Program-made: the position numbers and the translations under genes
The notes under the pieces: model-generated
What the model saw: only the letters and a program-made list of their open reading frames with translations
The model's database searches: none
Told to the model about the DNA's origin: nothing
In this document: positions 28,051 through 39,735 of the stretch, one piece after another
How positions within the stretch are numbered: position 1 is the first letter of the stretch
How the letters are laid out: the number at the start of each line of letters is the position of its first letter
Assembly: GCA_965205485.1 (NCBI GenBank)
Contig: OZ242180.1
Coordinates: forward strand, 2,784,001-2,848,000
From: Candidatus Latescibacterota bacterium
GTDB lineage: Bacteria; Latescibacterota; UBA2968; GCA-2709665
Direction of reading: 5' to 3'
Length of the DNA: 64,000 nucleotides

Positions 28051-29175
28051 TCACCGATTTTTCTTCGCGTACGCAAGGATGCCGTTAACGATCTTTTTCG
28101 CGTGGTGCTGCCGGTTCTTGTGATACCGGATTCGATAGGCCTCGTTCTCGTGGTGGACGTTGTGAACTTCAACGAGAATTTCGGCGTGGGCCTGATTATT
28201 CCGCAATACCGCCAGGTTCCGCCCCCGGATTTTAGCGGGGAGGTTCGGCTGGTGCAGGACCGAACGCATGACGCGAGCCAAATACCTGGAACGGCTGTCA
28301 ATTCTGCCCCGCCGTTTATGGTAGATTACCAGCGGACCCTTCGGGCGCCCGGGAGTGTTGTCCGCGTGCAGCGAAACAAACAGACTCCTGCCCCTTCGCG
28401 CTCCCTTTACGAAGCGGTTCGTCACCCGGACTCGCTGTGAAATATTGGCGCTTCTGGGCCGCACCTTTTCCGAATTCCTCCGGTTGTACCGCTCATCGTT
28501 GTAGACTTCGTTCTTTTCGTGCACGAATGTCGTTTTGGCCGGCAGGTTGTCGCGGATCAGATGATTGGGGCTGATCACCGTCAATGTCACCTCCGCGCCG
28601 AGCAGCCTGAGTTCTTTGAACATTCGCAACGCAATGTCGTACACGTATTCATCTTCGACCACGTAAACCCGCTGTTTCTTGCCTGCCAGGTTGGACACGA
28701 TGGCGCCCGGGTCGATTCCTCCGTGCCCGGGGTCGAGCACGATCCGCCATCCCTTCAGTGGTTTCCTTCTCTTCCTGGGCGCCTTGGCGAGAATCTCGTT
28801 GTCGAAGGCGCGCAACAGGATCTGGGCGCGTCGATAGTCCAGACCCGGGCTGGTTCGCGCCCTTTCGGAGTAGTTGCGATGCCTTTGCCTGCTCGCTTTC
28901 GGCTTTTGCCAGTAATATGGTCCGTTCGGCGCGTTGTATTTGGTAATACGAGGTGTCAGACGGAGTACCTGACCCGGATAGACGTTGTTGGACCGCAGCT
29001 TGTTGATCCGCTTGATTGCCCTGATGCTGGTCTTGTATTTCCTGGCAATCGACCACAAGGAATCGCCCTTTCGGACCTTGTGGACCAGCGAGAGTCCGGC
29101 GAGGGGACTTGCCAGCAGCAAGACCACGCAGAGCCCGGCGCTCAGAAGTCGCAAGAATCGAAGCTTATCCATCAT
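28051..29175 (-). CDS. N-acetylmuramoyl-L-alanine amidase (Amidase_3) with a LysM domain
   Basis: Signal peptide; HKVRKGDSLWSIARKY LysM; LDPGHGG...E, SLHAD and LVE zinc/catalytic motifs. Confidence 0.88.
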   Translation of the reverse strand: MMDKLRFLRLLSAGLCVVLLLASPLAGLSLVHKVRKGDSLWSIARKYKTSIRAIKRINKLRSNNVYPGQVLRLTPRITKYNAPNGPYYWQKPKASRQRHRNYSERARTSPGLDYRRAQILLRAFDNEILAKAPRKRRKPLKGWRIVLDPGHGGIDPGAIVSNLAGKKQRVYVVEDEYVYDIALRMFKELRLLGAEVTLTVISPNHLIRDNLPAKTTFVHEKNEVYNDERYNRRNSEKVRPRSANISQRVRVTNRFVKGARRGRSLFVSLHADNTPGRPKGPLVIYHKRRGRIDSRSRYLARVMRSVLHQPNLPAKIRGRNLAVLRNNQAHAEILVEVHNVHHENEAYRIRYHKNRQHHAKKIVNGILAYAKKNR

Positions 29176-29244
29176 TGTTGTTATCCGCTGAAGCACGAGT
29201 AGACCCACGGGCGCACCTGCCCGTATCTCGAGAGAGTACTCCAG

Positions 29245-29273
29245 ATTTTACGCCATTTGTCCGAAAAAGACAA
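29245..29273 (-). promoter_or_regulatory. sigma70-type promoter for the amidase
   Basis: Minus strand TTGTCT-N17-TAAAAT. Confidence 0.5.
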
Positions 29274-29427
29274 GTCGGCTATGGCTGTGAACGAGCCTCT
29301 GGAGCCGATACAAGTCGGTTGTTTTCGCCTTGCGTTCGGTGTATTTCACCAATAATTGTTGACAATCATTCATCGAAATGAAATATAAATCGCTAAATAA
29401 CAGTTATTTATATGGTTTTTTGTGATT

Positions 29428-29444
29428 CGGGCACGGTCCTTGCG
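29428..29444 (+). promoter_or_regulatory. sigma54 (-24/-12) promoter upstream of pspA
   Basis: cgGGCACggtccTTGCg equals GGCAC-N5-TTGC with exact spacing, preceded by an AT-rich tract. Confidence 0.8.
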
Positions 29445-29537
29445 TTATGTGGTCGGCAGATCGGCGGATGAGTGTCTGAATCCGGATTTTTTAACCGTGG
29501 CGGGCTACGGACACCCGCAAGAGAAAGGAGTACGACG

Positions 29538-30215
29538 ATGGCCAAGGGGATATTCTCCAGAATGGCTGACATCATCAAGGCCAACATAAACGACCTTCTG
29601 AATCGCGCGGAAGATCCGGAGAAGATGATCCGGCAGATGATCCTCGAAATGGAGGAGGCCGTTAACAAGGCGACGGCGTCCGTCGGGACGGCCGTGGCCA
29701 ACGAGAAACGTCTGGAGCGTCAGCTTCTGGACAAGACGGACCAGATCGAGGCCTGGCAGAAGAAGGCGGAACTGGCCGTGGAATCCGGCGAGGACGATCT
29801 GGCCAGGCGCGCTCTGGAACGAAAGGCCACGCTGGAAAAAGCCGCCGGGGATCTGGAAGCCGCGTTCGACGAGAGCCACAAGACCTCCGATCAGCTCAAG
29901 AAACAGCTTGGGCAGCTCAAGTCCAAACTGGACGAAGCACGCACCCGTCAGGGCGCGCTGATCGCGCGGCGACGCGCCGCTCAGGCTCGGAAGCAGATCG
30001 CCCAGGGCATTTCGGGCGTCGGTGACGACGCCTTTTCCAGCTTCGAACGCTTTCGCAGCCGGGTTGAGAATGAAGAAGCCGAAGCTTCCGCTCACGCGGA
30101 AATTGCCGGTGAAGATCCCTCGCTGGACGATACGTTCGAAAAACTGGAACGACGGAACACGGTGGAAGACGAACTCGAGGCGCTGAAGAACAAACTGCGC
30201 AAATCCGATGCGTGA
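29538..30215 (+). CDS. pspA: Phage shock protein A (PspA/IM30, ESCRT-III superfamily)
   Basis: GIFSRMADIIKANINDLLNRAEDPEKMIRQMILEME, EDDLARRAL and EDELEALK; RBS AAGGAG. Confidence 0.95.
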   Translation: MAKGIFSRMADIIKANINDLLNRAEDPEKMIRQMILEMEEAVNKATASVGTAVANEKRLERQLLDKTDQIEAWQKKAELAVESGEDDLARRALERKATLEKAAGDLEAAFDESHKTSDQLKKQLGQLKSKLDEARTRQGALIARRRAAQARKQIAQGISGVGDDAFSSFERFRSRVENEEAEASAHAEIAGEDPSLDDTFEKLERRNTVEDELEALKNKLRKSDA

Positions 30216-30849
30216 ATTTCGAAAAATCCTGGACGAAATCGCGTACGAGATCGACAGGACAATGCGCGACGCAACAGAGGCATGGCGTGATTTCAAGATG
30301 ACCCGACCCGCGCGGCAAGAGCCGGGAAGGGTTCGTCACCCCCGTTCGCGTCGGCTGTCCTTCCGATTCTCCGATCTGGCCACTGACGGGAGTTGTGCTA
30401 TGCGATACGCCTTCGCGCTGCTACTGAAAGTCACAGCGATTCTGTTCGTTTTCGGCGGTCTGATGGGCATAGTCTATTCCGGCTTCCGGTCGTCCGGTTT
30501 CATCCTGAACCCCCTTGACATTGTCATGGGTATCGCCGTAATCTCGTTCGCGCTGGTTTTCTGGCTGGCCGGCCGAAAGGTCCAGGTGTCGGCCGAGCAC
30601 AAGCGGTACGCGCAGTATCAACACCGCCTGCTCAGGCTCGCACGCGAGAAAGGCGGCAGCCTCACCGTTCTGGAGGCGGCTACGGACGGGAGGATGACCG
30701 TGGGAAAGGCAGAAGAGATCCTCGGTGCATTGGCCGTCGGCGGCAGCGCCGAGGTTCGGGTGTCAGAGTCCGGTCTCGTTGTGTATCACTTTCCCGAGAT
30801 TGAACATGGATCCGAAAAAACCCGGGCGAAACCGGTGTATGAACTTTGA
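30208..30849 (+). CDS. Two-TM membrane protein with a C-terminal winged-helix-like domain
   Basis: Overlaps the pspA stop; two hydrophobic segments followed by LLRLAREKGGSLTVLEAA...AEEIL...VSESGLVVYHFPEI. Confidence 0.72.
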   Translation: MREFRKILDEIAYEIDRTMRDATEAWRDFKMTRPARQEPGRVRHPRSRRLSFRFSDLATDGSCAMRYAFALLLKVTAILFVFGGLMGIVYSGFRSSGFILNPLDIVMGIAVISFALVFWLAGRKVQVSAEHKRYAQYQHRLLRLAREKGGSLTVLEAATDGRMTVGKAEEILGALAVGGSAEVRVSESGLVVYHFPEIEHGSEKTRAKPVYEL

Positions 30850-30876
30850 TACATTCGAAAATCACGGAGGGATGTC

Positions 30877-31092
30877 ATGTTTGAAGTCGGTATTGGCGTT
30901 GCGCTGATCGTCCTTGCCGTGGCGGTCCTCAAATACGTGGAGCGGCAGACAAAGGGTACCGTCCCCGGTAAGGTCGAGGAACGCCTGAATGCCCGGCTGG
31001 ACGACCTTGACAGGAGACTGACCGATATCCAGGAAATCATGATCGCGATCGACGAAAAGCTGAATCGCCAGGACTCGGGAGGCGCGTCGTGA
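30877..31092 (+). CDS. Small single-TM protein with a PspB-like coiled-coil tail (paralog 1)
   Basis: RBS GGAGGG; TM EVGIGVALIVLAVAVL; tail RLDDLDRRLTDIQEIMIAIDEKL. Confidence 0.78.
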   Translation: MFEVGIGVALIVLAVAVLKYVERQTKGTVPGKVEERLNARLDDLDRRLTDIQEIMIAIDEKLNRQDSGGAS

Positions 31093-31175
31093 ATCGCGCC
31101 AGGTTCACCGGATTACCTGAAGCGCGATCGGCCAGTATCAGAATCATATCTGCTCAAGAAACGGGGCGTTGAATC

Positions 31176-31550
31176 ATGAACACACAGCACATTCACGTCG
31201 GCGAGCGGATTCAGGGTGGGACGGCCGTTGTCACCATCAGCGGCGATCCGATCGCCCTGCCGGAGGTGGCGCCGCTCCGACGCGAAATATCGAACCTTGT
31301 AAACGGAGGCGCTCGCACCGTCGTGGTCGACCTTTCACGCGTGAACCACATGGGCGCCGCCATGCTTGGTGAACTGGCGAGGGGCATTAAAGCCACCCGA
31401 GACGCCGGAGGCGACCTGAGGTTGAGCGGCGTTTCCCGTCGTATCCGAAGAGTCCTCGCATTGACAGGACTCTCTCGATTCTTCAAGCAGGCCGAGATTG
31501 GAAACGGTACGACGGAAGCCGCCAGCCGAAACGTCAAAAAAGTGGCTTGA
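31176..31550 (+). CDS. STAS-domain protein (anti-sigma factor antagonist-like)
   Basis: VVTISG, VVVDLSRVNHMGAAMLG, GGDLRL and VLALTGL. Confidence 0.85.
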   Translation: MNTQHIHVGERIQGGTAVVTISGDPIALPEVAPLRREISNLVNGGARTVVVDLSRVNHMGAAMLGELARGIKATRDAGGDLRLSGVSRRIRRVLALTGLSRFFKQAEIGNGTTEAASRNVKKVA

Positions 31551-31615
31551 GACTTCAAATCGTCGGAATGCCGTCGCCACACAATCAAACGCGGGGACTT
31601 CAGAGGAGGGAAAGT

Positions 31616-32191
31616 ATGAGTTGGATTCTGGAACTGGCGTTGGCGCTTTGCCTGCTGATCGTTGCGGGTGGATACTCCGTTTATCTGATGACTCCCGGCA
31701 ACAAGAAGCCCAGTGGATCCACTGTGGGGATTTTCCTGGCGGTGGCGGCCGTCGGTTTCGTTGTCTGGGCATTCACGTCGGAACGGTGGAACCTGCTTCC
31801 TGGCGCCGAAGACATTCCCACTATTACCCTGACCGGCAATACCGCCGGTCTAACGGGTGAAAGCGTGAGACTATTTCTGGAAAATCAGAGACGCCTGGAG
31901 TCAACTGCCGGTAAACTCGAGGACGTCGCAGACCGTCTCGAGTTGGCGCAATCCGGAACAGGTCTGGGCATTGCGATGGAGATCGGCATTGGGATCTGTC
32001 TGATCATTTTCGCCGGGGGCCTTGTGAGCTATATACACCTCAGAAAGAAGAGGGAAGGCAAGGGGATGAGTCCCGAACGGGCCAAGCGAATGGAGTCGCG
32101 GCTGGACGCCGTGGACCAGCGGCTGAACGACCTCCAGGAAGTGATCATCACCCTGGATGAAAGGCTCAGGCGAGGCAAAACCAACGTCTGA
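31616..32191 (+). CDS. Three-TM membrane protein with a PspB-like coiled-coil tail (paralog 2)
   Basis: RBS GAGGAGG; last TM EIGIGICLIIFAGGLV; tail RLDAVDQRLNDLQEVIITLDERL. Confidence 0.78.
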   Translation: MSWILELALALCLLIVAGGYSVYLMTPGNKKPSGSTVGIFLAVAAVGFVVWAFTSERWNLLPGAEDIPTITLTGNTAGLTGESVRLFLENQRRLESTAGKLEDVADRLELAQSGTGLGIAMEIGIGICLIIFAGGLVSYIHLRKKREGKGMSPERAKRMESRLDAVDQRLNDLQEVIITLDERLRRGKTNV

Positions 32192-32222
32192 ACAACGACT
32201 GCAAGCCAAAGGAGGGATCCTG

Positions 32223-32600
32223 ATGACCCGTGAGTTTATTACCAGAGGCGCAATCGTCTTTATCCTGATTTTGCTTGGAGCGGTAACGCTGAGGTTTTTC
32301 TTCGGCGACCCATTCATGCCCGGGAGTTCGCCACGCTTCGTGAGTTTCGCCATTGCTCTTGCACTGGGGATTCTGCTGATCGGCGGGACAGTCGCGGTGA
32401 CCGTGTTCGCCCTCGGCTACGTGATGATATATCTGAAGCGTCGGAACAGCGGCCAGACTCACGGATTCGAAACGAACCAGACAGAAGCGTTCAAAACCCG
32501 GCTGAACGAAGTGGATCAACGCCTGACCGATGTTCAGGACATACTGATAACCATTGACGAGAAACTGAGCCGGTTGCAGGAAAACAGGAGCACGGGCTGA
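32223..32600 (+). CDS. Membrane protein with a PspB-like coiled-coil tail (paralog 3)
   Basis: RBS GGAGGG; hydrophobic segments followed by RLNEVDQRLTDVQDILITIDEKL. Confidence 0.78.
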   Translation: MTREFITRGAIVFILILLGAVTLRFFFGDPFMPGSSPRFVSFAIALALGILLIGGTVAVTVFALGYVMIYLKRRNSGQTHGFETNQTEAFKTRLNEVDQRLTDVQDILITIDEKLSRLQENRSTG

Positions 32601-32734
32601 TCATCGTCTCCATTCGAATCCGCCTCTGTACCGCGACGTCCGGGCGGACTCCAGGTCTTTCACGTAACTTTCAATCTAAACCGGAATGGCAGAGATAAAT
32701 CATCTGGCTACCGGAGAGTAGAAAGGACGGAACC

Positions 32735-32911
32735 ATGCTCGCGAAGATCCTCGGCATCATCCTTATCGCCATCGGCGCGTATCTCGGTATTTTCGAAGCG
32801 ATCAAGCTCATCGGCATGTCCCTGGAAATGGTGTTCTTGCTCCTTAAGCTGTTTGTGTCGTTTGTCCTGATTTACGTGGGTTACCGGCTGCTTACAGGAG
32901 AATCCAGATAA
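32735..32911 (+). CDS. 58-aa two-TM small membrane protein (PspG/LiaI-like topology); not in the ORF track
   Basis: RBS AAAGGA; MLAKILGIILIAIGAYLGIFEAIKLIGMSLEMVFLLLKLFVSFVLIYVGYRLLTGESR*. Confidence 0.72.
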   Translation: MLAKILGIILIAIGAYLGIFEAIKLIGMSLEMVFLLLKLFVSFVLIYVGYRLLTGESR

Positions 32912-32942
32912 TTGACCGACCATTAGAGAGGAAAACCAATAG

Positions 32943-33518
32943 ATGAAAAACGAACGGTATCTGGTCCGGAGGGCAATCGAAGGTGACGCGGCCGCCTTCG
33001 GCGTCCTGTACCGGGCCTGCCACGAACAGATCTACGCCACGATGGTGCGTCGAACAAGCGACCCTGAAACCGCACAGGATCTCGTACAGACCGCGTTTTT
33101 GAGGGCATATACGGCCCTTGGCTCCTATCGAGGCGATGCCGCGTTTGCCACCTGGCTCACCCAGATCGCCCTGAACGTCCACAAGTCCCACTTCCGCAAA
33201 CAGCAGGTGCGCCGTCGGTGGACAACGGTAACCGAAGATCCTGCCGCACTCGTGGAAGCCACGCGCGTGCCCGCCGCGGGCGAGAATCCTGAATCCACGG
33301 TCGAGCGAAACCAGCGGCGCGAACTCGTGAGAATGAGCATTCACGCATTGCCGGAAAGATATCGCGAAGTTATCTGGATGCGTTATGTTCGCGACTGGTC
33401 CTACGAGGAGATAACACGGGCGCTGCAGATTCCTATGGGGACGGTCAAGACATGGCTCAATCGCGGACGTTACCAGTTGAAGGGCGAATTCAGAAAGCGG
33501 GGACTGGTACCCTCCTGA
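32943..33518 (+). CDS. ECF RNA polymerase sigma factor (SigW/RpoE-like)
   Basis: GDAAAFGVLY, AQDLVQTAFLRAY, FATWL, LPERYREV, SYEEI and GTVKTWLNRGR. Confidence 0.92.
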   Translation: MKNERYLVRRAIEGDAAAFGVLYRACHEQIYATMVRRTSDPETAQDLVQTAFLRAYTALGSYRGDAAFATWLTQIALNVHKSHFRKQQVRRRWTTVTEDPAALVEATRVPAAGENPESTVERNQRRELVRMSIHALPERYREVIWMRYVRDWSYEEITRALQIPMGTVKTWLNRGRYQLKGEFRKRGLVPS

Positions 33519-33601
33519 GTTCGCGTGACTTCAAGTTCCGGACAATTCCAGTTTTGGTGCTCGAACGGGAGGTCTCAGCGCTTGCATTGGCGTCTCATTC
33601 G

Positions 33602-33661
33602 GGGCGAAAACTGTAGCCGAGCATCGTCCCGGCGCCAGGCACCGTGGGCGAAAACCGTAGC
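33602..33661. promoter_or_regulatory. 16-bp direct repeat pair, a candidate operator upstream of nfeD-flotillin
   Basis: gggcgaaaactgtagc (33602) and gggcgaaaaccgtagc (33646), 15/16 identical and 44 bp apart. Confidence 0.5.
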
Positions 33662-33794
33662 GATTTTGTATTGACGCAAAGAAGATTCTGTATCACATTT
33701 CGCGGCGCAAAGCGCTTTACCGATACAGACCGTTTTTCCGCGTACGGGAGATCGTCGTTGCAAACTCAAGGAGATCCGAAGAAGGGAGCCGGAT

Positions 33795-34391
33795 ATGGAT
33801 GCCTGGTGGATGGAACTGACCGTGCTCAATCAGATTTTCTACGTCATGGCGATTTTCTTCAGTGCGTTTTTCGTCTGGCAACTCCTGGCTGCCTTGCTCG
33901 GTCTCGGAGGAGGGGCGGACGCGGGGATCGCAGGAGATGCGAACTTCGGCGATACCGGGCCGGAGTTCAACGACGGTACGGTTGCCTCATTCAAGCTGCT
34001 GTCTATCCGGTCGCTCATTGCCTTTGGCATGCTGTTCGGGTGGGCGGGTGCCCTGTATCTCCAAAGAGGGATGGAAGTACGAACCGCCCTTGTCTACGCG
34101 CTTGTATGGGGCAGCGCGGGCATGGCGGTCGTGGCCTATTTCTTCCACGGTATCAGGCAGCTTACCGAAACCGGAAACGCAAGCCTTGATACGTGCGTAG
34201 GCACGTCGGGTGAAGTGTATCTGGATATTCCGGAAGGCGGCACGGGGCAGGTCCGGGTGATGGAGAGCGGGACGGTCGCGTACGTGACTGCCCGAGGAAA
34301 GAACGGCATGCCGGTCTCCGCCAGGACGCCCGTGCGCATTCTCCGGGTTGTGAGCGCAACCACGCTTGAGGTCGAGCCCCTGAAATCATGA
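33795..34391 (+). CDS. NfeD-like (YuaF/YqiJ-type) membrane protein with a C-terminal OB-fold
   Basis: TM segments followed by VGTSGEVYLDIP..GTGQV; lies directly upstream of flotillin. Confidence 0.82.
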   Translation: MDAWWMELTVLNQIFYVMAIFFSAFFVWQLLAALLGLGGGADAGIAGDANFGDTGPEFNDGTVASFKLLSIRSLIAFGMLFGWAGALYLQRGMEVRTALVYALVWGSAGMAVVAYFFHGIRQLTETGNASLDTCVGTSGEVYLDIPEGGTGQVRVMESGTVAYVTARGKNGMPVSARTPVRILRVVSATTLEVEPLKS

Positions 34392-34485
34392 GAAGCTGGA
34401 TCAACATGATATTTGCAGCCAGCGCGGATTTTCCCCGGGAAAGATCTCATTCAACGGTGCTATATTCAGTCGAGGAGGGATTGCA

Positions 34486-36000
34486 ATGGCAACCGAGACG
34501 ATTCTGACAATCATCCTGCTGTTGGTGGTGTTTCTTCTCTTCGTGACGTTTATTTCCCGGTACAAACGGTGTCCGTCCAACAAGATATTGGTCGTCTACG
34601 GGAAAACCGGAAAGGGTGCCGCAAAATGCGTCCACGGAGGCGCGGCCTTCGTTCTTCCGCTCCTGCAGGATTATGAGTATCTGGACCTGGAACCGTTTGT
34701 CGTTCCCATAGACCTGGACAACGCGCTTTCTCAGGAGAACATCCGTGTGTCCGTACCCACAACCGTCACCGCGGCGGTTTCCAATCAGGCGGGCGTGATG
34801 CAGAATGCGGCGATCCGACTCCTGGGCCTTTCCCGCGAACAGATCCAGAGCCAGGCGCAGGACATCATCCTGGGCCAGATGCGGGCGGTGATCGCCACCA
34901 TGCAGATCGAAGAAATCAACAGGGACCGGCAGGCGTTTATGTCCAAGGTCAATGAAGCCGTGTCAACCGAAATGGAGAAAATCGGGCTGGCCGTGATCAA
35001 TGTAAACATCAAGGATATCGAAGACGAAAGCGGCTATATCAAAGCCCTCGGTCAGAAGGCGGCCGCCGAAGCCATCAATCAGGCGGCAATCGACGTGGCC
35101 GAGCAGGAGAAAATGGGCAAGGTGGGTGTGGCCGAACGGGAACGAGACCAGCGTACGGACGTGGCCGCGGCGAATGCGGCCGCGGACATCGGCGAGGCCG
35201 AGGCCGCCAGGGACAGGCGCCAGCGGGTTGCCGCGCTGGAATCCGAGGCACAGATCGGGGAGGCAGAGGCCACCAGGAACAAACGCCAGATGGTCTCTGC
35301 CCTGGATGCGGAAGCGGTCCAGGCCGAGACGGAGGCCGATTCCAAGAAGGCCGGTTACATGGCGCAGCAGACCGTAGCCGAGGAGGTCGCGCGTCAGAAG
35401 GGACAGGAGGCCGCCAAGGCAGCCGACGGCGCCATCCGGGTCGCTCAGGAAAAGGCGGAAAGAGAGGCAGAGGACGCCCGGGCGCTACGCGAAGAAGCCC
35501 GCCTTAGAGCCGAAATCGTCGTAGAAGCCGAGGCGCAAAAGAAAAAGCTGGTTGTGCAGGCCGAGGCCGAGAAAGCCCAGAAAGCGCTTGTGGCGGAAGG
35601 CGAGGCCGCCGCGATTCTGGCCGAGCGACGGGCCGAAGCGGAGGGCACTCAGGCCATACTGGACGCCAAGGCCGAGGGATATAAGGAACTGGTTGCCGCC
35701 TGCGGCGGTAAAGACCAGGCTGCCGCAGCCTTCCTCATCGTCGAACGGCTGACAGAGGTCGCGGGCATTCAGGCCGAAGCCATTCAGAATATCCCGCTGG
35801 AGAAAATCGTGGTCTGGGACGGCGGCAACGGACAGGGAGGTATGTCCAACCTCGGTCAGCGTCTGATGGGCGCGATTCCTCCCATGCACGAACTGGCAAA
35901 GCTGGCAGGTCTGGAACTGCCGGAGTTTCTGGGCAGGTTGGCAGGCGGAGTGAATCCGGCGGACGGTAATGAAGACAAAACCGGAGAATCCTCCGGATAA
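34486..36000 (+). CDS. Flotillin family (SPFH/band 7) protein
   Basis: N-terminal TM, RYKRCPSNKILVVYG, GQMRAVIATM, EEINRDR and a long AEA-rich coiled coil. Confidence 0.93.
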   Translation: MATETILTIILLLVVFLLFVTFISRYKRCPSNKILVVYGKTGKGAAKCVHGGAAFVLPLLQDYEYLDLEPFVVPIDLDNALSQENIRVSVPTTVTAAVSNQAGVMQNAAIRLLGLSREQIQSQAQDIILGQMRAVIATMQIEEINRDRQAFMSKVNEAVSTEMEKIGLAVINVNIKDIEDESGYIKALGQKAAAEAINQAAIDVAEQEKMGKVGVAERERDQRTDVAAANAAADIGEAEAARDRRQRVAALESEAQIGEAEATRNKRQMVSALDAEAVQAETEADSKKAGYMAQQTVAEEVARQKGQEAAKAADGAIRVAQEKAEREAEDARALREEARLRAEIVVEAEAQKKKLVVQAEAEKAQKALVAEGEAAAILAERRAEAEGTQAILDAKAEGYKELVAACGGKDQAAAAFLIVERLTEVAGIQAEAIQNIPLEKIVVWDGGNGQGGMSNLGQRLMGAIPPMHELAKLAGLELPEFLGRLAGGVNPADGNEDKTGESSG

Positions 36001-36025
36001 ACCCGATTAGTCATGGAGTAACCTG

Positions 36026-37651
36026 TTGACCAAATCTGACATATCAGACAATGGTCCGGCGCCGTCCGACCGCATAAGTATCGTTCGGACCCTCCCGGAA
36101 TCCGCGAATGCAGACGCACGGAGGCACTGCCGCGACGGTGATTCCGCGTTGGAAACCGGGGACATGTCGAGAGCTGAAGCCGCTTACGCTTCGGCACTGA
36201 GTCACGACGCGGGCAACCTTCGTGCGCTCCACAACCTGGGTGTCGTCCACTATAGAAGGGGCAACTGGCAGCATGCGCTCGCAAGCTTCGAACGTGCGCT
36301 GGGCTTGACCCATGACAATTCGGACCTGTACTTCAAGATCGGTATGTGCCTGCTCAAGACGGGCGCAGATGGCGCGTCGGAGGCCTTCGAGTCCGCCATC
36401 GCGGGCAAGCCGGAACATCTTGAGGCGCGCTTTCAACTGGCGCTGTTGCGGGCGGAGGGCGCGGAATCGGGATCCAGGGGTCGGCAACAGGCGGTCGAAA
36501 TGCTCCGTTTTATTCTGGAGGCGGTGGATCGCGGCGTGCACTACGGCAACGTGGACGGTGCCTGCTTCCTGCTCGCCAGCTTTCTGGACGACCTTCCGGA
36601 GAACATCGAGGAAGCGATCGCTGTTTACCGTCGTGGTCTGGAAGCGAATCCGCTGTTCGCACCGGGTCACAACAACCTTGGCATCCTGCTCATGCAATCG
36701 GGTCAGACCCTTCAGGCCCTGGGTGCATTCAAGATAGCCATCCAGCTCGAGCCGGATTACGCGCTGCCCTACAGGAACCTGGCGCATCTCTTGTTCGATC
36801 ACAAGAGTTCAGCGCAGATGGAGCAGGAATATACAACCATCATCGAAGAATTCGGCGCAAAGGCTGCTTCGGTTCTGGCAAGGTTGTCCCTTGAGCTCAT
36901 CGACATGGGACGTGTGCAGGTGGGTGAGAGCCTGTACACGCGTGGCCACCAGATAAAGAACCTGATGGGTCTGGTCGGGAGCCGTACACGCAGGCTGATT
37001 CGAAGGAACCGGAAGGACAACACGGTGCTCGATGATCTAAGGGAAATCGCACGCGATCAGGAGCACATCTACGACCAGTGGGTCGCGTACCTGCGCAGCA
37101 TGAAGCAGGACCCGTTGAATCCCACACTGGTCGATATTCCACTGCTGTTGCGCAACATCAGAAAGACGGTCTCGAGCCGGACCGGTGGTACGTTGCTCCG
37201 CTTCGCATTCGAACCGCAGGTGCCCCAGGTCAAGGTCGACCCCGGAATGTTGCGTGAGGCGGTTACCAACCTGATTCTCAACGCACTGGACGCCGTAGAC
37301 GAGGATGGTGCGGTCACGGTACAGGCCGGCTACGACAATAAGCGGGCGTCGGTGTTCATCGAGGTGGAAGACAACGGGCCGGGCATATCCGAAGAAATCC
37401 AGGGTCGCATCTTCGATCCGGGGTTCTCAACCAAAGAAAAGGGCAATGGATTCGGCCTCAGCATCTGCTCGCGGATCGTATCCGCCCACAGGGGAAACCT
37501 GCGCATGATCAGCCGTCCGGGCGCCGGTGCCGTGTTTCGCATCGACATTCCAGTGGACTTCGAGCTCGTTTCCGAATCCGAAAGCATCGGCTGGAGCGGG
37601 GATCCGTTAGCTGCGTCCAGGCTGCCGCTGGCCGAGGAATTCATCGAGTAA
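36026..37651 (+). CDS. Soluble sensor histidine kinase with N-terminal TPR repeats
   Basis: TPR-like helices (ALHNLGVVHY, GHNNLGILL); H-box-like RGHQIKNLM; N box NLILNALDA; G1 DNGPGI; F box FDPGFSTK; G2 GNGFGL; no TM segment. Confidence 0.88.
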   Translation: MTKSDISDNGPAPSDRISIVRTLPESANADARRHCRDGDSALETGDMSRAEAAYASALSHDAGNLRALHNLGVVHYRRGNWQHALASFERALGLTHDNSDLYFKIGMCLLKTGADGASEAFESAIAGKPEHLEARFQLALLRAEGAESGSRGRQQAVEMLRFILEAVDRGVHYGNVDGACFLLASFLDDLPENIEEAIAVYRRGLEANPLFAPGHNNLGILLMQSGQTLQALGAFKIAIQLEPDYALPYRNLAHLLFDHKSSAQMEQEYTTIIEEFGAKAASVLARLSLELIDMGRVQVGESLYTRGHQIKNLMGLVGSRTRRLIRRNRKDNTVLDDLREIARDQEHIYDQWVAYLRSMKQDPLNPTLVDIPLLLRNIRKTVSSRTGGTLLRFAFEPQVPQVKVDPGMLREAVTNLILNALDAVDEDGAVTVQAGYDNKRASVFIEVEDNGPGISEEIQGRIFDPGFSTKEKGNGFGLSICSRIVSAHRGNLRMISRPGAGAVFRIDIPVDFELVSESESIGWSGDPLAASRLPLAEEFIE

Positions 37652-37654
37652 GTC

Positions 37655-39061
37655 ATGAACGCGCAAATCGTTGTCGCAGACGACCAGTCCGAAATCCTGG
37701 GCATGCTCACGCGAAGCCTTCAGGTGGATGGCCGGATCGTGAGGGCATTTCCCACCGGTAGAGAGGCCTTCGCGTATTTGCGAAAACACGTTTCGGACGT
37801 TGACATGGCGATTCTGGATATCGACTTTGGACAGGCCGAGCCGGACGGCCTCGAAATTCTCCGTCAGATTCGCGATCTCGCACCCGATCTGCCGGTGATC
37901 ATCCTCACGGGCAAGGGCACCGTGGAGAACGCCGTAGCCGCCCTGCGCATGGGCGCTTCCGACTTTATCGAGAAAGACTTCTATATTGAAGACCGGCTTG
38001 AACTCAGCCTTGAAAAACTCGACCGCGTACTTGCCGTGCTCAAGGAGAACGCTCGCCTCCAGGCCCGGGTTAAGGATCTGGATCGGGAGAACAGATTCTA
38101 CCGTGACGAATTCGGCAAGAAATACAGGACGGTAAACGCCAGCTCACAGATGCTGCGGATTATGCAACAGGCCGAGCGCATCGCTTCCATCCCCCGACCG
38201 GTCCTGGTCCTCGGCGAACCCGGAACCGGAAAGGAACTCGTGGCCGCCGCGATCCACTACGGTGGGGTACGAAGAGATCGTCCATTCGTCAAAGTCAACT
38301 GCGCCGCCCTTTCCGCCAACCTCCTGGAAAGCGAGCTCTTCGGCCATGAGAAAGGCGCCTTTACCGGAGCCACGGAAGCCCGGCCGGGCCGGTTTGAAGC
38401 GGCAAACGGCGGCACTCTGTTGCTGGACGAGATCGGCAACACCACGCCCGAGTTCCAGCAGAACGTCCTGCGCGCCATTGAATATCAGGAGATCCAACGG
38501 GTGGGCGGCGCCGCGCCGACCAGCGTGGACGTACGTATCATTGCCGCCACGAATGCCGACCTCGAGCGCGAGATCGTCGAAGGCCGCTTCCGGCAGGATC
38601 TGTACGACCGCCTGCGCTTCGAGATTATCCGCATTCCCCCCCTACGGGAGCGTCGTGAAGACATCCGGCCCCTCGCCGTATTTTTCGTCGAACAGATCGT
38701 CCGGGAGGTGCCGGGCCTGGAAGCGCGTCCGTTTTCGGAGAGCGCGCTGCGGATGCTGTTGGGCTACGCGTGGCCGGGAAACGTGCGCGAGCTTAAATTC
38801 GCTGTCGAACGCGCCGCCTGCATGGCCGTGGGTGCATCCATCGAGCCCCGGGACCTGCCGCCGGAGATCTCCAGCGGGGCCGCCGCTGCGCCCGGAGACG
38901 GGTTTGACGCCCAGGTTACGGCGTTTGAACTCGGCTTGCTCAGAGGCGCGTTGAGCCGCGCAAACTGGAACCAGCGCAAGGCCGCCGAGTCGCTCTGCTT
39001 GAGCTACGATCAGTTTCGTCACTTTTACAGGAAGTACGGACTTGCAGGAGAGAAATCCTGA
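37655..39061 (+). CDS. sigma54-dependent activator: receiver domain + PspF-like AAA+ domain + HTH
   Basis: REC (ADD, ILD, LTG, EK); [20 protein letters not shown] and WPGNVREL; PspF-like LRAIEY, ATNADL, DRLRF and [20 protein letters not shown]. Confidence 0.92.
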
Positions 39062-39130
39062 CACACTCTCGCACGTTGACAGGGAAAGCGACCAACCGAG
39101 GTTCATTACGGCATATCCGGCTTGATCGTA

Positions 39131-39318
39131 AGAAGTTGTCTTAAAATTCCCGGTGAGTTCCCGAGCGCGAGCGAAAAAGCGGCGGTTATGAGGCGCGAGG
39201 GGCGCGCAGCGCCGACGGGAAAATCCGCCCATATCTGTCTATACGGGTGGGTTTGACCAACGCCGACCGGCGCTTTTGCAGCCGCGCGAAGACCGCTGGA
39301 AATTTTAAGACAGCTTCC
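39131..39318. mobile_element. MITE-like element, copy B (188 bp), inverted relative to copy A
   Basis: Ends agaagttgtcttaaaatt and aattttaagacagcttcc; the arms match the reverse complement of 19332-19521. Confidence 0.85.
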
Positions 39319-39330
39319 AAGGAGACAGAT

Positions 39331-39735
39331 ATGTTCAAGGAACCGGACGTTATAGCGCTTACAACGGAGGTTCCGCTCAATCATATTTGGGATGTCCCGT
39401 CCAGCAGCCCGCTGATTGAGAAACGCAATCCGGGGGAAGGGCTGAAAGTCGGCGACATTGGCACGATTGTATATGTGCAGGGCAACGGGGAAGCACTCGA
39501 GGTTGAATTCCTGGGCCCGGAAGGCAACACGATAGGCGTTGCCACGATCTCGCCATCACAGGCCCGCTTGGCCACGGAAGAAGACCTCACTAACCGATCT
39601 CTTCCGGAAGAAGCTGACAGTGCGGCTCTATCACGGCCACAGGATAGATTTGGAAGGCCCAGTTCTTTGTCAGTACAGGAAGATCCCGAAAACTACAACA
39701 CGCAGGACACGAATCCGGACAACACGGAGGTGTAA
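39331..39735 (+). CDS. DUF4926-like protein
   Basis: DVIALT...GLKVGDIGTIVYV..NGEALEVEF..PEGNTIGVATI; RBS AAGGAG. Confidence 0.68.
   Translation: MFKEPDVIALTTEVPLNHIWDVPSSSPLIEKRNPGEGLKVGDIGTIVYVQGNGEALEVEFLGPEGNTIGVATISPSQARLATEEDLTNRSLPEEADSAALSRPQDRFGRPSSLSVQEDPENYNTQDTNPDNTEV

Follow-up and report, generated by a model that had tools for sequence, protein, structure and literature searches.

PspF is the textbook AAA+ activator without a regulatory domain, which is restrained in trans by its own effector, PspA. In Escherichia coli, PspF is described as lacking a signal-recognition domain (PMC3162934), and PspA was proposed to mimic a cis-acting regulatory domain (Zhang et al., 2013, PMC3791423), with the residues Y51, L52 and W56 forming the PspA docking patch of PspF (PMC3791423). 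Two further described systems come close to the locus reported here, namely the Aquifex aeolicus activators NtrC1 and NtrC4 (1NY5, 3DZD), and the LiaFSR-LiaIH system of Bacillus, wherein a PspA-family effector is placed under a kinase/regulator pair in an envelope-stress cluster with small membrane proteins (PMC11237479). The same broad survey of Psp systems does not analyse PspF and two-component partners in detail (PMC11237479). A literature search, the scope of which ended before the supplementary tables of that survey that may list such loci, met PspF only as a protein without a sensory domain and yielded no report of a PspF relative with a receiver. Here, we report on a 64,000-nucleotide (nt) stretch of a Candidatus Latescibacterota bacterium (contig OZ242180.1, forward-strand positions 2,784,001 to 2,848,000; the whole stretch is called the window, and all coordinates refer to it unless stated otherwise), in which the gene at 37655-39061 (+) encodes an activator of 468 amino acids (aa) composed of a receiver (REC) domain, a linker helix, a sigma-54 AAA+ domain and a PspF-like helix-turn-helix (HTH). 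This protein is likely to be a two-component response regulator that drives a phage-shock-like membrane-stress response, as a closest relative of PspF controlled in cis by its receiver, and the locus as a whole is best understood as a Psp circuit run by a two-component system.

The activator open reading frame (ORF) is uninterrupted from its ATG start, and the ORF, REC and AAA+ domains named in a preliminary description of this DNA, which was made from the letters alone, proved real, with every quoted motif found in the translation. Pfam assigns residues 5-112 to Response_reg (PF00072, 73.8 bits), 161-322 to Sigma54_activat (PF00158, 211.8 bits) and 331-411 to AAA_lid_14, and the Walker A, Walker B and GAFTGA loop (EKGAFTGA) are all intact, as is characteristic of the sigma-54 enhancer-binding proteins (EBPs) of PF00158. 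The features of an NtrC-type response regulator are present as well, namely the acidic pocket, acceptor aspartate, threonine and lysine of the receiver (D9, D10, D55, T85 and K107) and a cognate kinase gene alongside, which ends 4 nt before the activator ATG. In a set of 44 relatives with a REC domain, D55 never varies and at least 90% of the sequences retain each of D9, D10, T85 and K107; the PspF-like signature residues E276, Y277, T299, N300, D318, R319, L320 and F322 are invariant in the same set. The phosphorylation control that the preliminary description had put forward thus finds sequence support in an intact, conserved receiver and an adjoining kinase gene. In the AlphaFold 2 model of the activator (mean predicted local distance difference test score, pLDDT, 87.7), a REC fold is followed by a single helix of 46 residues (111-156) and then by the AAA+ domain, and the top whole-chain structural matches are the inactive state of NtrC1 (1NY5), NtrX and NtrC4. 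The domain order and the helical linker continuing the last receiver helix are shared with NtrC1 and NtrC4, and this likeness of fold suggests a similar off-state, imposed by receiver and linker, that would be relieved by phosphorylation; the activator differs from both in the length of its linker helix, in an AAA+/HTH region that groups with PspF, and in having a psp locus as its probable target.

The resemblance to PspF was found by alignment and by profile scores. An alignment with four E. coli proteins of the annotated K-12 record shows the activator to be 45% identical to PspF, versus 39% to NtrC, 41% to ZraR and 37% to AtoC. The PspF segments in that record read LRVIEY, ATNADL, LLDRLAFD, NQKRAAELLGLTYHQFR and HYLSSRWQGPF, just as the preliminary description gives them; the activator has counterparts that pair with the first three of these, and its HTH ending in LSYDQFR pairs with the PspF segment ending in LTYHQFR; NtrC, ZraR and AtoC deviate at the PspF-type motifs (e.g. 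ATHQNL and LFHRLNVI). The best NCBIfam model for the activator is TIGR02974 (pspF) at 343.9 bits, with the totals for AtoC (336), NifA (332.7) and NtrC (330.5) close behind. Among the 14 EBP loci of the 5.1-Mb genome, the activator is the top match to the PspF model and the sole EBP whose C-terminus also matches the HTH of that model. Among solved structures (phmmer against the PDB), PspF matches with 253 bits over 228 residues versus 213 bits over 246 residues for NtrC1, so that PspF scores highest per aligned residue. In database entries the relatives go by the name 'NtrC family response regulator', whereas P0082 and three members of the cluster of P0147, a protein of the sister group described below, were automatically annotated by JGI as 'psp operon transcriptional activator' (some with the addition 'PspF').

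Phylogenetic placement led in the same direction. Activator residues 147-468 were searched against 1.84 billion representatives, and the best 150 of 78,125 hits (E < 1e-30) were combined with the 14 EBPs of the genome itself, eight E. coli EBPs, the Latescibacterota orthologues and REC-less relatives, to the exclusion of 31 proteins with more than one AAA+ domain and of five fragments shorter than 290 residues; unrooted trees were built with IQ-TREE (96 rows, LG+C20, quick search) and FastTree (146 rows). In the IQ-TREE tree, a 55-row clade unites canonical PspF (12 rows) with a 43-row sister group containing the activator, and the support of this joint clade is 99 for AAA+ plus HTH, 95 after removal of the HTH columns and 98 in FastTree. 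E. coli NtrC, ZraR, AtoC, GlrR, NorR and FhlA all fall outside it, and so do the EBP paralogs of the genome (13 in FastTree, 8 in IQ-TREE). In an approximately unbiased (AU) test, forcing the Latescibacterota rows together with NtrC, ZraR, AtoC and GlrR lowers the log-likelihood by 146 units (p-AU 4.9e-5); this is the grouping that the preliminary description had named as contrary to its claim, the exact rows being picked after the tree was seen. The AAA+/HTH region is accordingly PspF-like and not NtrC-, ZraR- or AtoC-like, as had been claimed. The assignment to the PspF clade holds only in part, since the activator shares a joint clade with PspF and yet lies in the sister group of the canonical PspF clade (support 100), not within it. 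The 31 proteins of the best 150 representatives that were left out (P0122-P0134 and others) carry two or three sigma-54 AAA+ domains per chain and range from 399 to 1885 aa; they could be genuine tandem activators or merged gene calls.

The candidate target is the pspA gene at 29538-30215 (+), which encodes a PspA/IM30 family protein of 225 aa (PF04012, 172 bits) with 39% identity to E. coli PspA along its full length, and a Shine-Dalgarno-like AAGGAG lies upstream of its ATG. A sigma-54 type -24/-12 element, GGCACGGTCCTTGC (29430-29443, +), is located 95 nt 5' of this ATG and represents the single occurrence of exact GGCAC-N5-TTGC in the window, so that the genes for the ECF sigma factor, the flotillin and the kinase have no exact match in front of them. 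In a survey of 41 Latescibacterota pspA upstream regions, from which five more loci had been dropped through failure of the start-codon pattern, the element recurs with 0-1 mismatch in 40/41, 71-109 nt 5' of the pspA ATG. Further upstream lies a putative enhancer (upstream activating sequence, UAS; 29315-29352, +) of two 17-nt sites 21 nt apart, namely site I, TCGGTTGTTTTCGCCTT (29315-29331, +), and site II, TCGGTGTATTTCACCAA (29336-29352, +), the latter with one mismatch to TTGGYG-N5-CRCCAA. The best match to the dyad TTGGTG-N5-CACCAA is found 92-116 nt 5' of the -24/-12 element in 36/41 of the surveyed regions, with a second, weaker dyad site 21 nt upstream of the best one and an A+T-rich spacer downstream; the spacer between UAS and promoter in the window (29353-29429, +), comparable stretches of which occur in the 9 loci compared, could be a DNA-bending region.

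At the genome scale, a relaxed scan for GG[CT]A[CT]-N5-TTG[CT] yielded 321 sigma-54-like sites in 5.1 Mb, of which only two have the dyad, with at most one mismatch, 50-170 nt upstream (~0.33 expected by chance), and both of these promoters precede pspA paralogs. A strict scan (TTGC at -12 and a TTGGTG/CACCAA dyad) retained the window pspA promoter only, the other being missed for its TTGT at -12. The second pspA paralog (C1:593700; region G000 C1:593608-594443, L003:1486-2157) lies outside the window, and its product is 44% identical to the window PspA; it possesses its own -24/-12 element and, 92 nt upstream, a TTGGCG-N5-CGCCAA dyad free of mismatches, and no member of the 14 EBP loci is found closer to it than 100 kb. 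The genome also contains rpoN. This arrangement parallels that of E. coli, wherein pspA is likewise situated behind a sigma-54 promoter, a two-site enhancer with 21 nt between sites and an A+T-rich spacer, and the AAA+ and HTH sequences of E. coli PspF are the closest to those of the activator and fall into the same tree clade. The E. coli pspF-pspA intergenic region, in which enhancer sites have been mapped, can be read as carrying a comparable TTAGTG-N5-CGCTAA dyad and a 21-nt repeat, which may be equivalent to the dyad arrangement of the window.

The gene neighbourhood is stable in the phylum. The cluster order is conserved in 8/8 related loci from 7 genera with the activator gene last, the kinase-activator gene pair is kept in all 8, an activator orthologue occurs in 39/41 genomes of the order, and 45/48 Latescibacterota loci have pspA upstream of the activator gene and in the same orientation, the 3 misses being contigs shorter than 6.5 kb. 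The association also extends to a second lineage, represented by P0147, which belongs to the sister group, has about 48% identity to the activator, and has relatives that were recovered from metagenomes; two members of its 90% cluster are labelled by NCBI as Kofleriaceae metagenome-assembled genomes (MAGs). Among 28 second-lineage loci of at least 8 kb, two of which were checked with Pfam, a PspA-family gene lies downstream of the REC-bearing EBP in 28/28, from adjacent to 2.8 kb away, a homologous kinase gene lies upstream in 26/28 (the two misses begin at a contig edge), and a gene for an extracytoplasmic function (ECF) sigma factor follows pspA in 25/28. Kinase, REC-bearing EBP, PspA and ECF sigma factor therefore constitute a module that is conserved despite a different gene order.

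The kinase gene at 36026-37651 (+) encodes, from its first start codon, a soluble histidine kinase of 541 aa with N-terminal tetratricopeptide (TPR) repeats, an H-box containing the histidine H308 and a HATPase_c domain, as assigned by Pfam TPR families and HATPase_c. Its H-box, N-box and G-boxes (H308, N415/N419, D449-G453 and G473-G477) show no change among 24 orthologues; the N-terminal TPRs vary, the conserved stretch being 134-295. Hydropathy revealed no hydrophobic segment in the kinase; as a soluble protein, it must receive the stress signal from a protein partner. In complex predictions of kinase residues 20-295 with PspA, run three times with a 24-row alignment of its own for each protein and with three controls, the interface score ipSAE reached 0.49, 0.63 and 0.62 (median 0.62), and the best control 0.00; the mark applied is reached by 116/157 solved complexes and 2/215 mismatched pairs, which is a rough calibration since own alignments were used here. 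The runs have at least 50% of contacts in common with a partner pLDDT of at least 69, and the predicted interface joins kinase 202-243 and 271-279 to PspA 41-62 and 109-123, a hairpin that also binds PspF in E. coli (PMC6003685). Within Latescibacterota, positions of at least 90% conservation are more frequent at this interface than in the rest of either protein (kinase 14/26 vs 58/250, PspA 24/27 vs 116/198). The modelling supports binding of PspA to the TPR domain of the kinase.

Taken together, the stress signal probably reaches the activator via the kinase and not by direct PspA binding, and the following course is proposed. The TPR histidine kinase would phosphorylate D55, because the two genes are adjacent and the catalytic and acceptor residues are intact, and phosphorylation would free the AAA+ domain from the off-state held by the receiver and the long linker helix, as in NtrC1-type activators. 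Bound at the pair of 17-nt dyad sites, which lie ~95 nt 5' of the pspA -24/-12 element, the activator would then remodel the sigma-54 RNA polymerase, an assignment made because its HTH resembles that of PspF, because dyad and promoter come together uniquely at pspA genes, and because of synteny. With the same dyad and promoter at the second pspA paralog, this paralog probably belongs to the same regulon, which would consist of the two psp loci. At the sensing end, the N-terminal helical hairpin of PspA may dock on the conserved C-terminal TPR repeats of the kinase, through which the kinase would read stress from PspA; this last step, drawn from the complex models, is tentative, with a chance a little short of even, and PspA signalling through the kinase is offered as a testable lead. 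If the step holds, PspA feedback would pass via the kinase and not via a Trp56-type patch on the AAA+ domain.

Several observations weigh against the proposed scheme. The activator scores below the curated TIGR02974 cut-off (343.9 vs 443.55 bits), which eight REC-less representatives in the same search space clear at 450-504 bits, and it departs from that equivalog in further respects, since it lies outside the canonical PspF clade, bears Response_reg at 5-112 and a linker to 156 where no N-terminal regulatory domain is expected, and lacks the Tyr-Leu-Trp patch, while its linkage to a pspA gene with sigma-54 promoter and upstream enhancer agrees with it. The monophyly of the 43-row sister group is weak (81-91), the tree searches were of the quick type, and the rows came from the 150 best hits to the query, by which the sampling is biased. 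At the promoter, the dyad could be bound by another of the 14 EBPs, and the activator gene lies 8 kb downstream of the pspA promoter. In the second lineage, no conserved -24/-12 element was found in 23 loci around kinase and pspA or on either strand of 20 whole loci, so that sigma-54 control of pspA is seen by sequence in Latescibacterota only, and the predicted interface is not preferentially conserved there (interface vs rest: kinase 0.17 vs 0.23, PspA 0.32 vs 0.28). The complex score expresses model confidence and not a measurement, and the NtrC1-like off-state has the likeness of fold as its sole basis.

Some of these points would also suit an ordinary NtrC-family regulator that serves another target, be it the operon it belongs to, the flotillin genes or the gene of the ECF sigma factor, with pspA left to a different EBP. 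The closeness of the AtoC, NifA and NtrC model scores to that of PspF, the 13 other EBP loci in the genome, the missing sigma-54 promoter near pspA in the second lineage and the database name of the relatives all speak for such a regulator, but a PspF-type HTH exists in this EBP only, genome-wide, dyad and promoter come together before the two pspA paralogs only, no other gene of the window, including those of the ECF sigma factor, flotillin and kinase, has an exact -24/-12 match, and the linkage of EBP and PspA persists in two distant lineages despite differing gene order, whereby we give this explanation a very slim chance.

A different history of the activator was contained in the preliminary description, according to which a REC-less, PspA-inhibited PspF gained a receiver, subsequently gave up Trp56 and so moved from control by PspA binding to control by phosphorylation. 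The underlying alignment of the W56 loop was accurate, as W56 of PspF pairs with R207 of the activator, where NtrC, ZraR and AtoC have Ala, Ser and Ala, and the AAA+/HTH clade with PspF is real. In the trees, however, Trp occupies this column in 12/12 canonical PspF rows and in 0/84 other rows, including the outgroups and a REC-less Calditrichia-type clade, with one change on the tree, which argues that EBPs in general are without this Trp; by these rows, Trp56 is a novelty of canonical PspF, its absence is the background state, and a loss of the tryptophan is not borne out. As for the receiver, the activator REC plus linker matches the sister-group members P0154, P0147, P0139, P0159, P0150 and P0166 with 61-117 bits, whereas all other REC-bearing EBPs in the trees reach at most 58 bits (P0156, a fragment dropped from the trees, scores 94.9 bits), which argues that the fusion predates the split of these lineages; on such sequence grounds the REC-AAA+ fusion is old. 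A 15-row REC-less clade nested among REC-bearing rows (support 95 and 97) points to the occurrence of receiver loss in this family, and an N-terminal domain is present in nearly all outgroup EBPs, so that a gain of the receiver is likewise disfavoured. The REC state changes four times within the 55-row clade, a count that is blind to gain versus loss because the tree is unrooted, and both canonical PspF and the second REC-less, pspA-adjacent clade lie within the joint clade, by which a REC-less ancestor is possible; on balance we regard the gain-then-loss history as improbable.

The nested REC-less relatives, of ~321 aa, come from Calditrichia, Acidobacteriota, Lentisphaerales and other MAGs, and 11/15 of their loci contain a PspA-family gene. 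They too are without Trp at the W56 column, and the missing Trp alone is therefore no proof of lost PspA binding. These REC-less activators (L099-L113, e.g. L099:9935-10900 and L108:9962-10918) adjoin PspA-family genes, and several of them have GAYTGA for GAFTGA. Such relatives, which lack both Trp and a cis domain beside pspA and for which a regulator in trans is likely, lend some plausibility to a dual control of the activator, wherein a working receiver is combined with direct PspA inhibition of the AAA+ domain through a surface other than the Tyr-Leu-Trp patch; the Trp is evidently dispensable for PspA linkage in that clade, the patch tyrosine is kept in the activator (Y202), and a second PspA-binding site has been described on E. 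coli PspF (PMC6003685). Two of the three patch residues are nevertheless replaced (L52 by G203, W56 by R207) in a Gly- and Arg-rich loop, and we hold dual control to be improbable too.

Beyond the proposed scheme of a receiver-controlled activator of pspA, a wider reading may be considered, in which the PspA feedback is retained and re-routed such that free PspA docks by its N-terminal hairpin on the TPR domain of the kinase, which sets the phosphorylation of the activator, canonical PspF being the derived form; we consider this reading rather unlikely as a whole. If it were true, two lineages or more would have conserved a PspA-kinase-regulator relay in company with an ECF sigma factor, canonical PspF would have shed the receiver and evolved the Tyr-Leu-Trp patch, thereby moving the PspA dock from the kinase to the AAA+ ring, and the REC-less, Trp-less activators of Calditrichia and Acidobacteriota would represent a further state of the same transition. 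In any case, the locus and its clade, which have a cis domain, a soluble kinase and the same effector gene, provide the missing comparison for the origin of the trans-control of PspF, and they offer pairs for experiment, namely PspA with the TPR kinase and the D55 receiver with a PspF-type AAA+ domain, as well as a defined enhancer, while sigma-54 regulation of psp genes is extended to an uncultured phylum.

Compared with the described systems, the locus differs from that of E. coli in that PspF is without an N-terminal domain whereas the activator has a receiver and a long linker helix and retains only the Tyr of the docking patch; in that E. coli pspF is divergent from pspA whereas the activator gene stands at the far end of the cluster beside the kinase gene; and in that no Pfam match to PspB or PspC was obtained in the whole Latescibacterota genome, as well as in the TIGR02974 score. 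The likeness to LiaFSR concerns the PspA-family effector under a kinase/regulator pair and the small membrane proteins of the cluster; LiaR, however, consists of REC and a winged HTH and works through the housekeeping sigma factor, and its kinase LiaS is bound to the membrane, in contrast to the sigma-54 AAA+ activator and the soluble TPR kinase of the Latescibacterota.

Between pspA and the kinase gene, the cluster contains further genes, all on the + strand. The gene at 30208-30849, whose start overlaps the pspA stop and which adjoins pspA in 8/8 related loci, encodes a conserved membrane protein of 213 aa that is hydrophobic at ~63-125 and has no Pfam family; for the unnamed proteins of the cluster no credible Pfam family was obtained up to E 1. 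It is followed at 30877-32600 by small membrane proteins that, by translation and hydropathy, share a module of one transmembrane (TM) helix plus coiled-coil, with one copy in 30877-31092 and two more at the C-termini of 31547-32191 and 32157-32600, all of which cross-match among the three ORFs; the module is present in 7/8 related loci, and its layout, from which alone the label derives, may recall PspB. The coiled-coil tails bear a motif like RLDxVDQRLxDxQ, and the copy number varies between related loci, with none in L042. Within the same stretch, a STAS-domain, anti-sigma-antagonist-like gene (31176-31550, Pfam STAS) had no tblastn match in the 8 related loci from other genera. An ECF-type sigma factor of 191 aa is encoded at 32943-33518 (Pfam Sigma70_r2 and r4_2) and occurs in 8/8 related loci. 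The gene at 33795-34391 encodes a membrane protein without Pfam match, whose C-terminal beta-rich domain gives it an apparently NfeD-like layout, and it precedes an SPFH/flotillin gene (34486-36000; Pfam Band_7; NCBIfam FloT at 140.7 bits, under its cut-off), so that by layout the two resemble an NfeD-flotillin pair; this pair is optional, being found in 5/8 related loci and not in L042, L043 and L046. For terminators and sigma-70 promoters in 29000-39600, the counts were not above those of shuffled sequences, with no clear + strand intergenic terminator. In the 343-nt gap 5' of the ECF sigma gene lies an ORF of 58 aa (32735-32911, +), the product of which is very hydrophobic.

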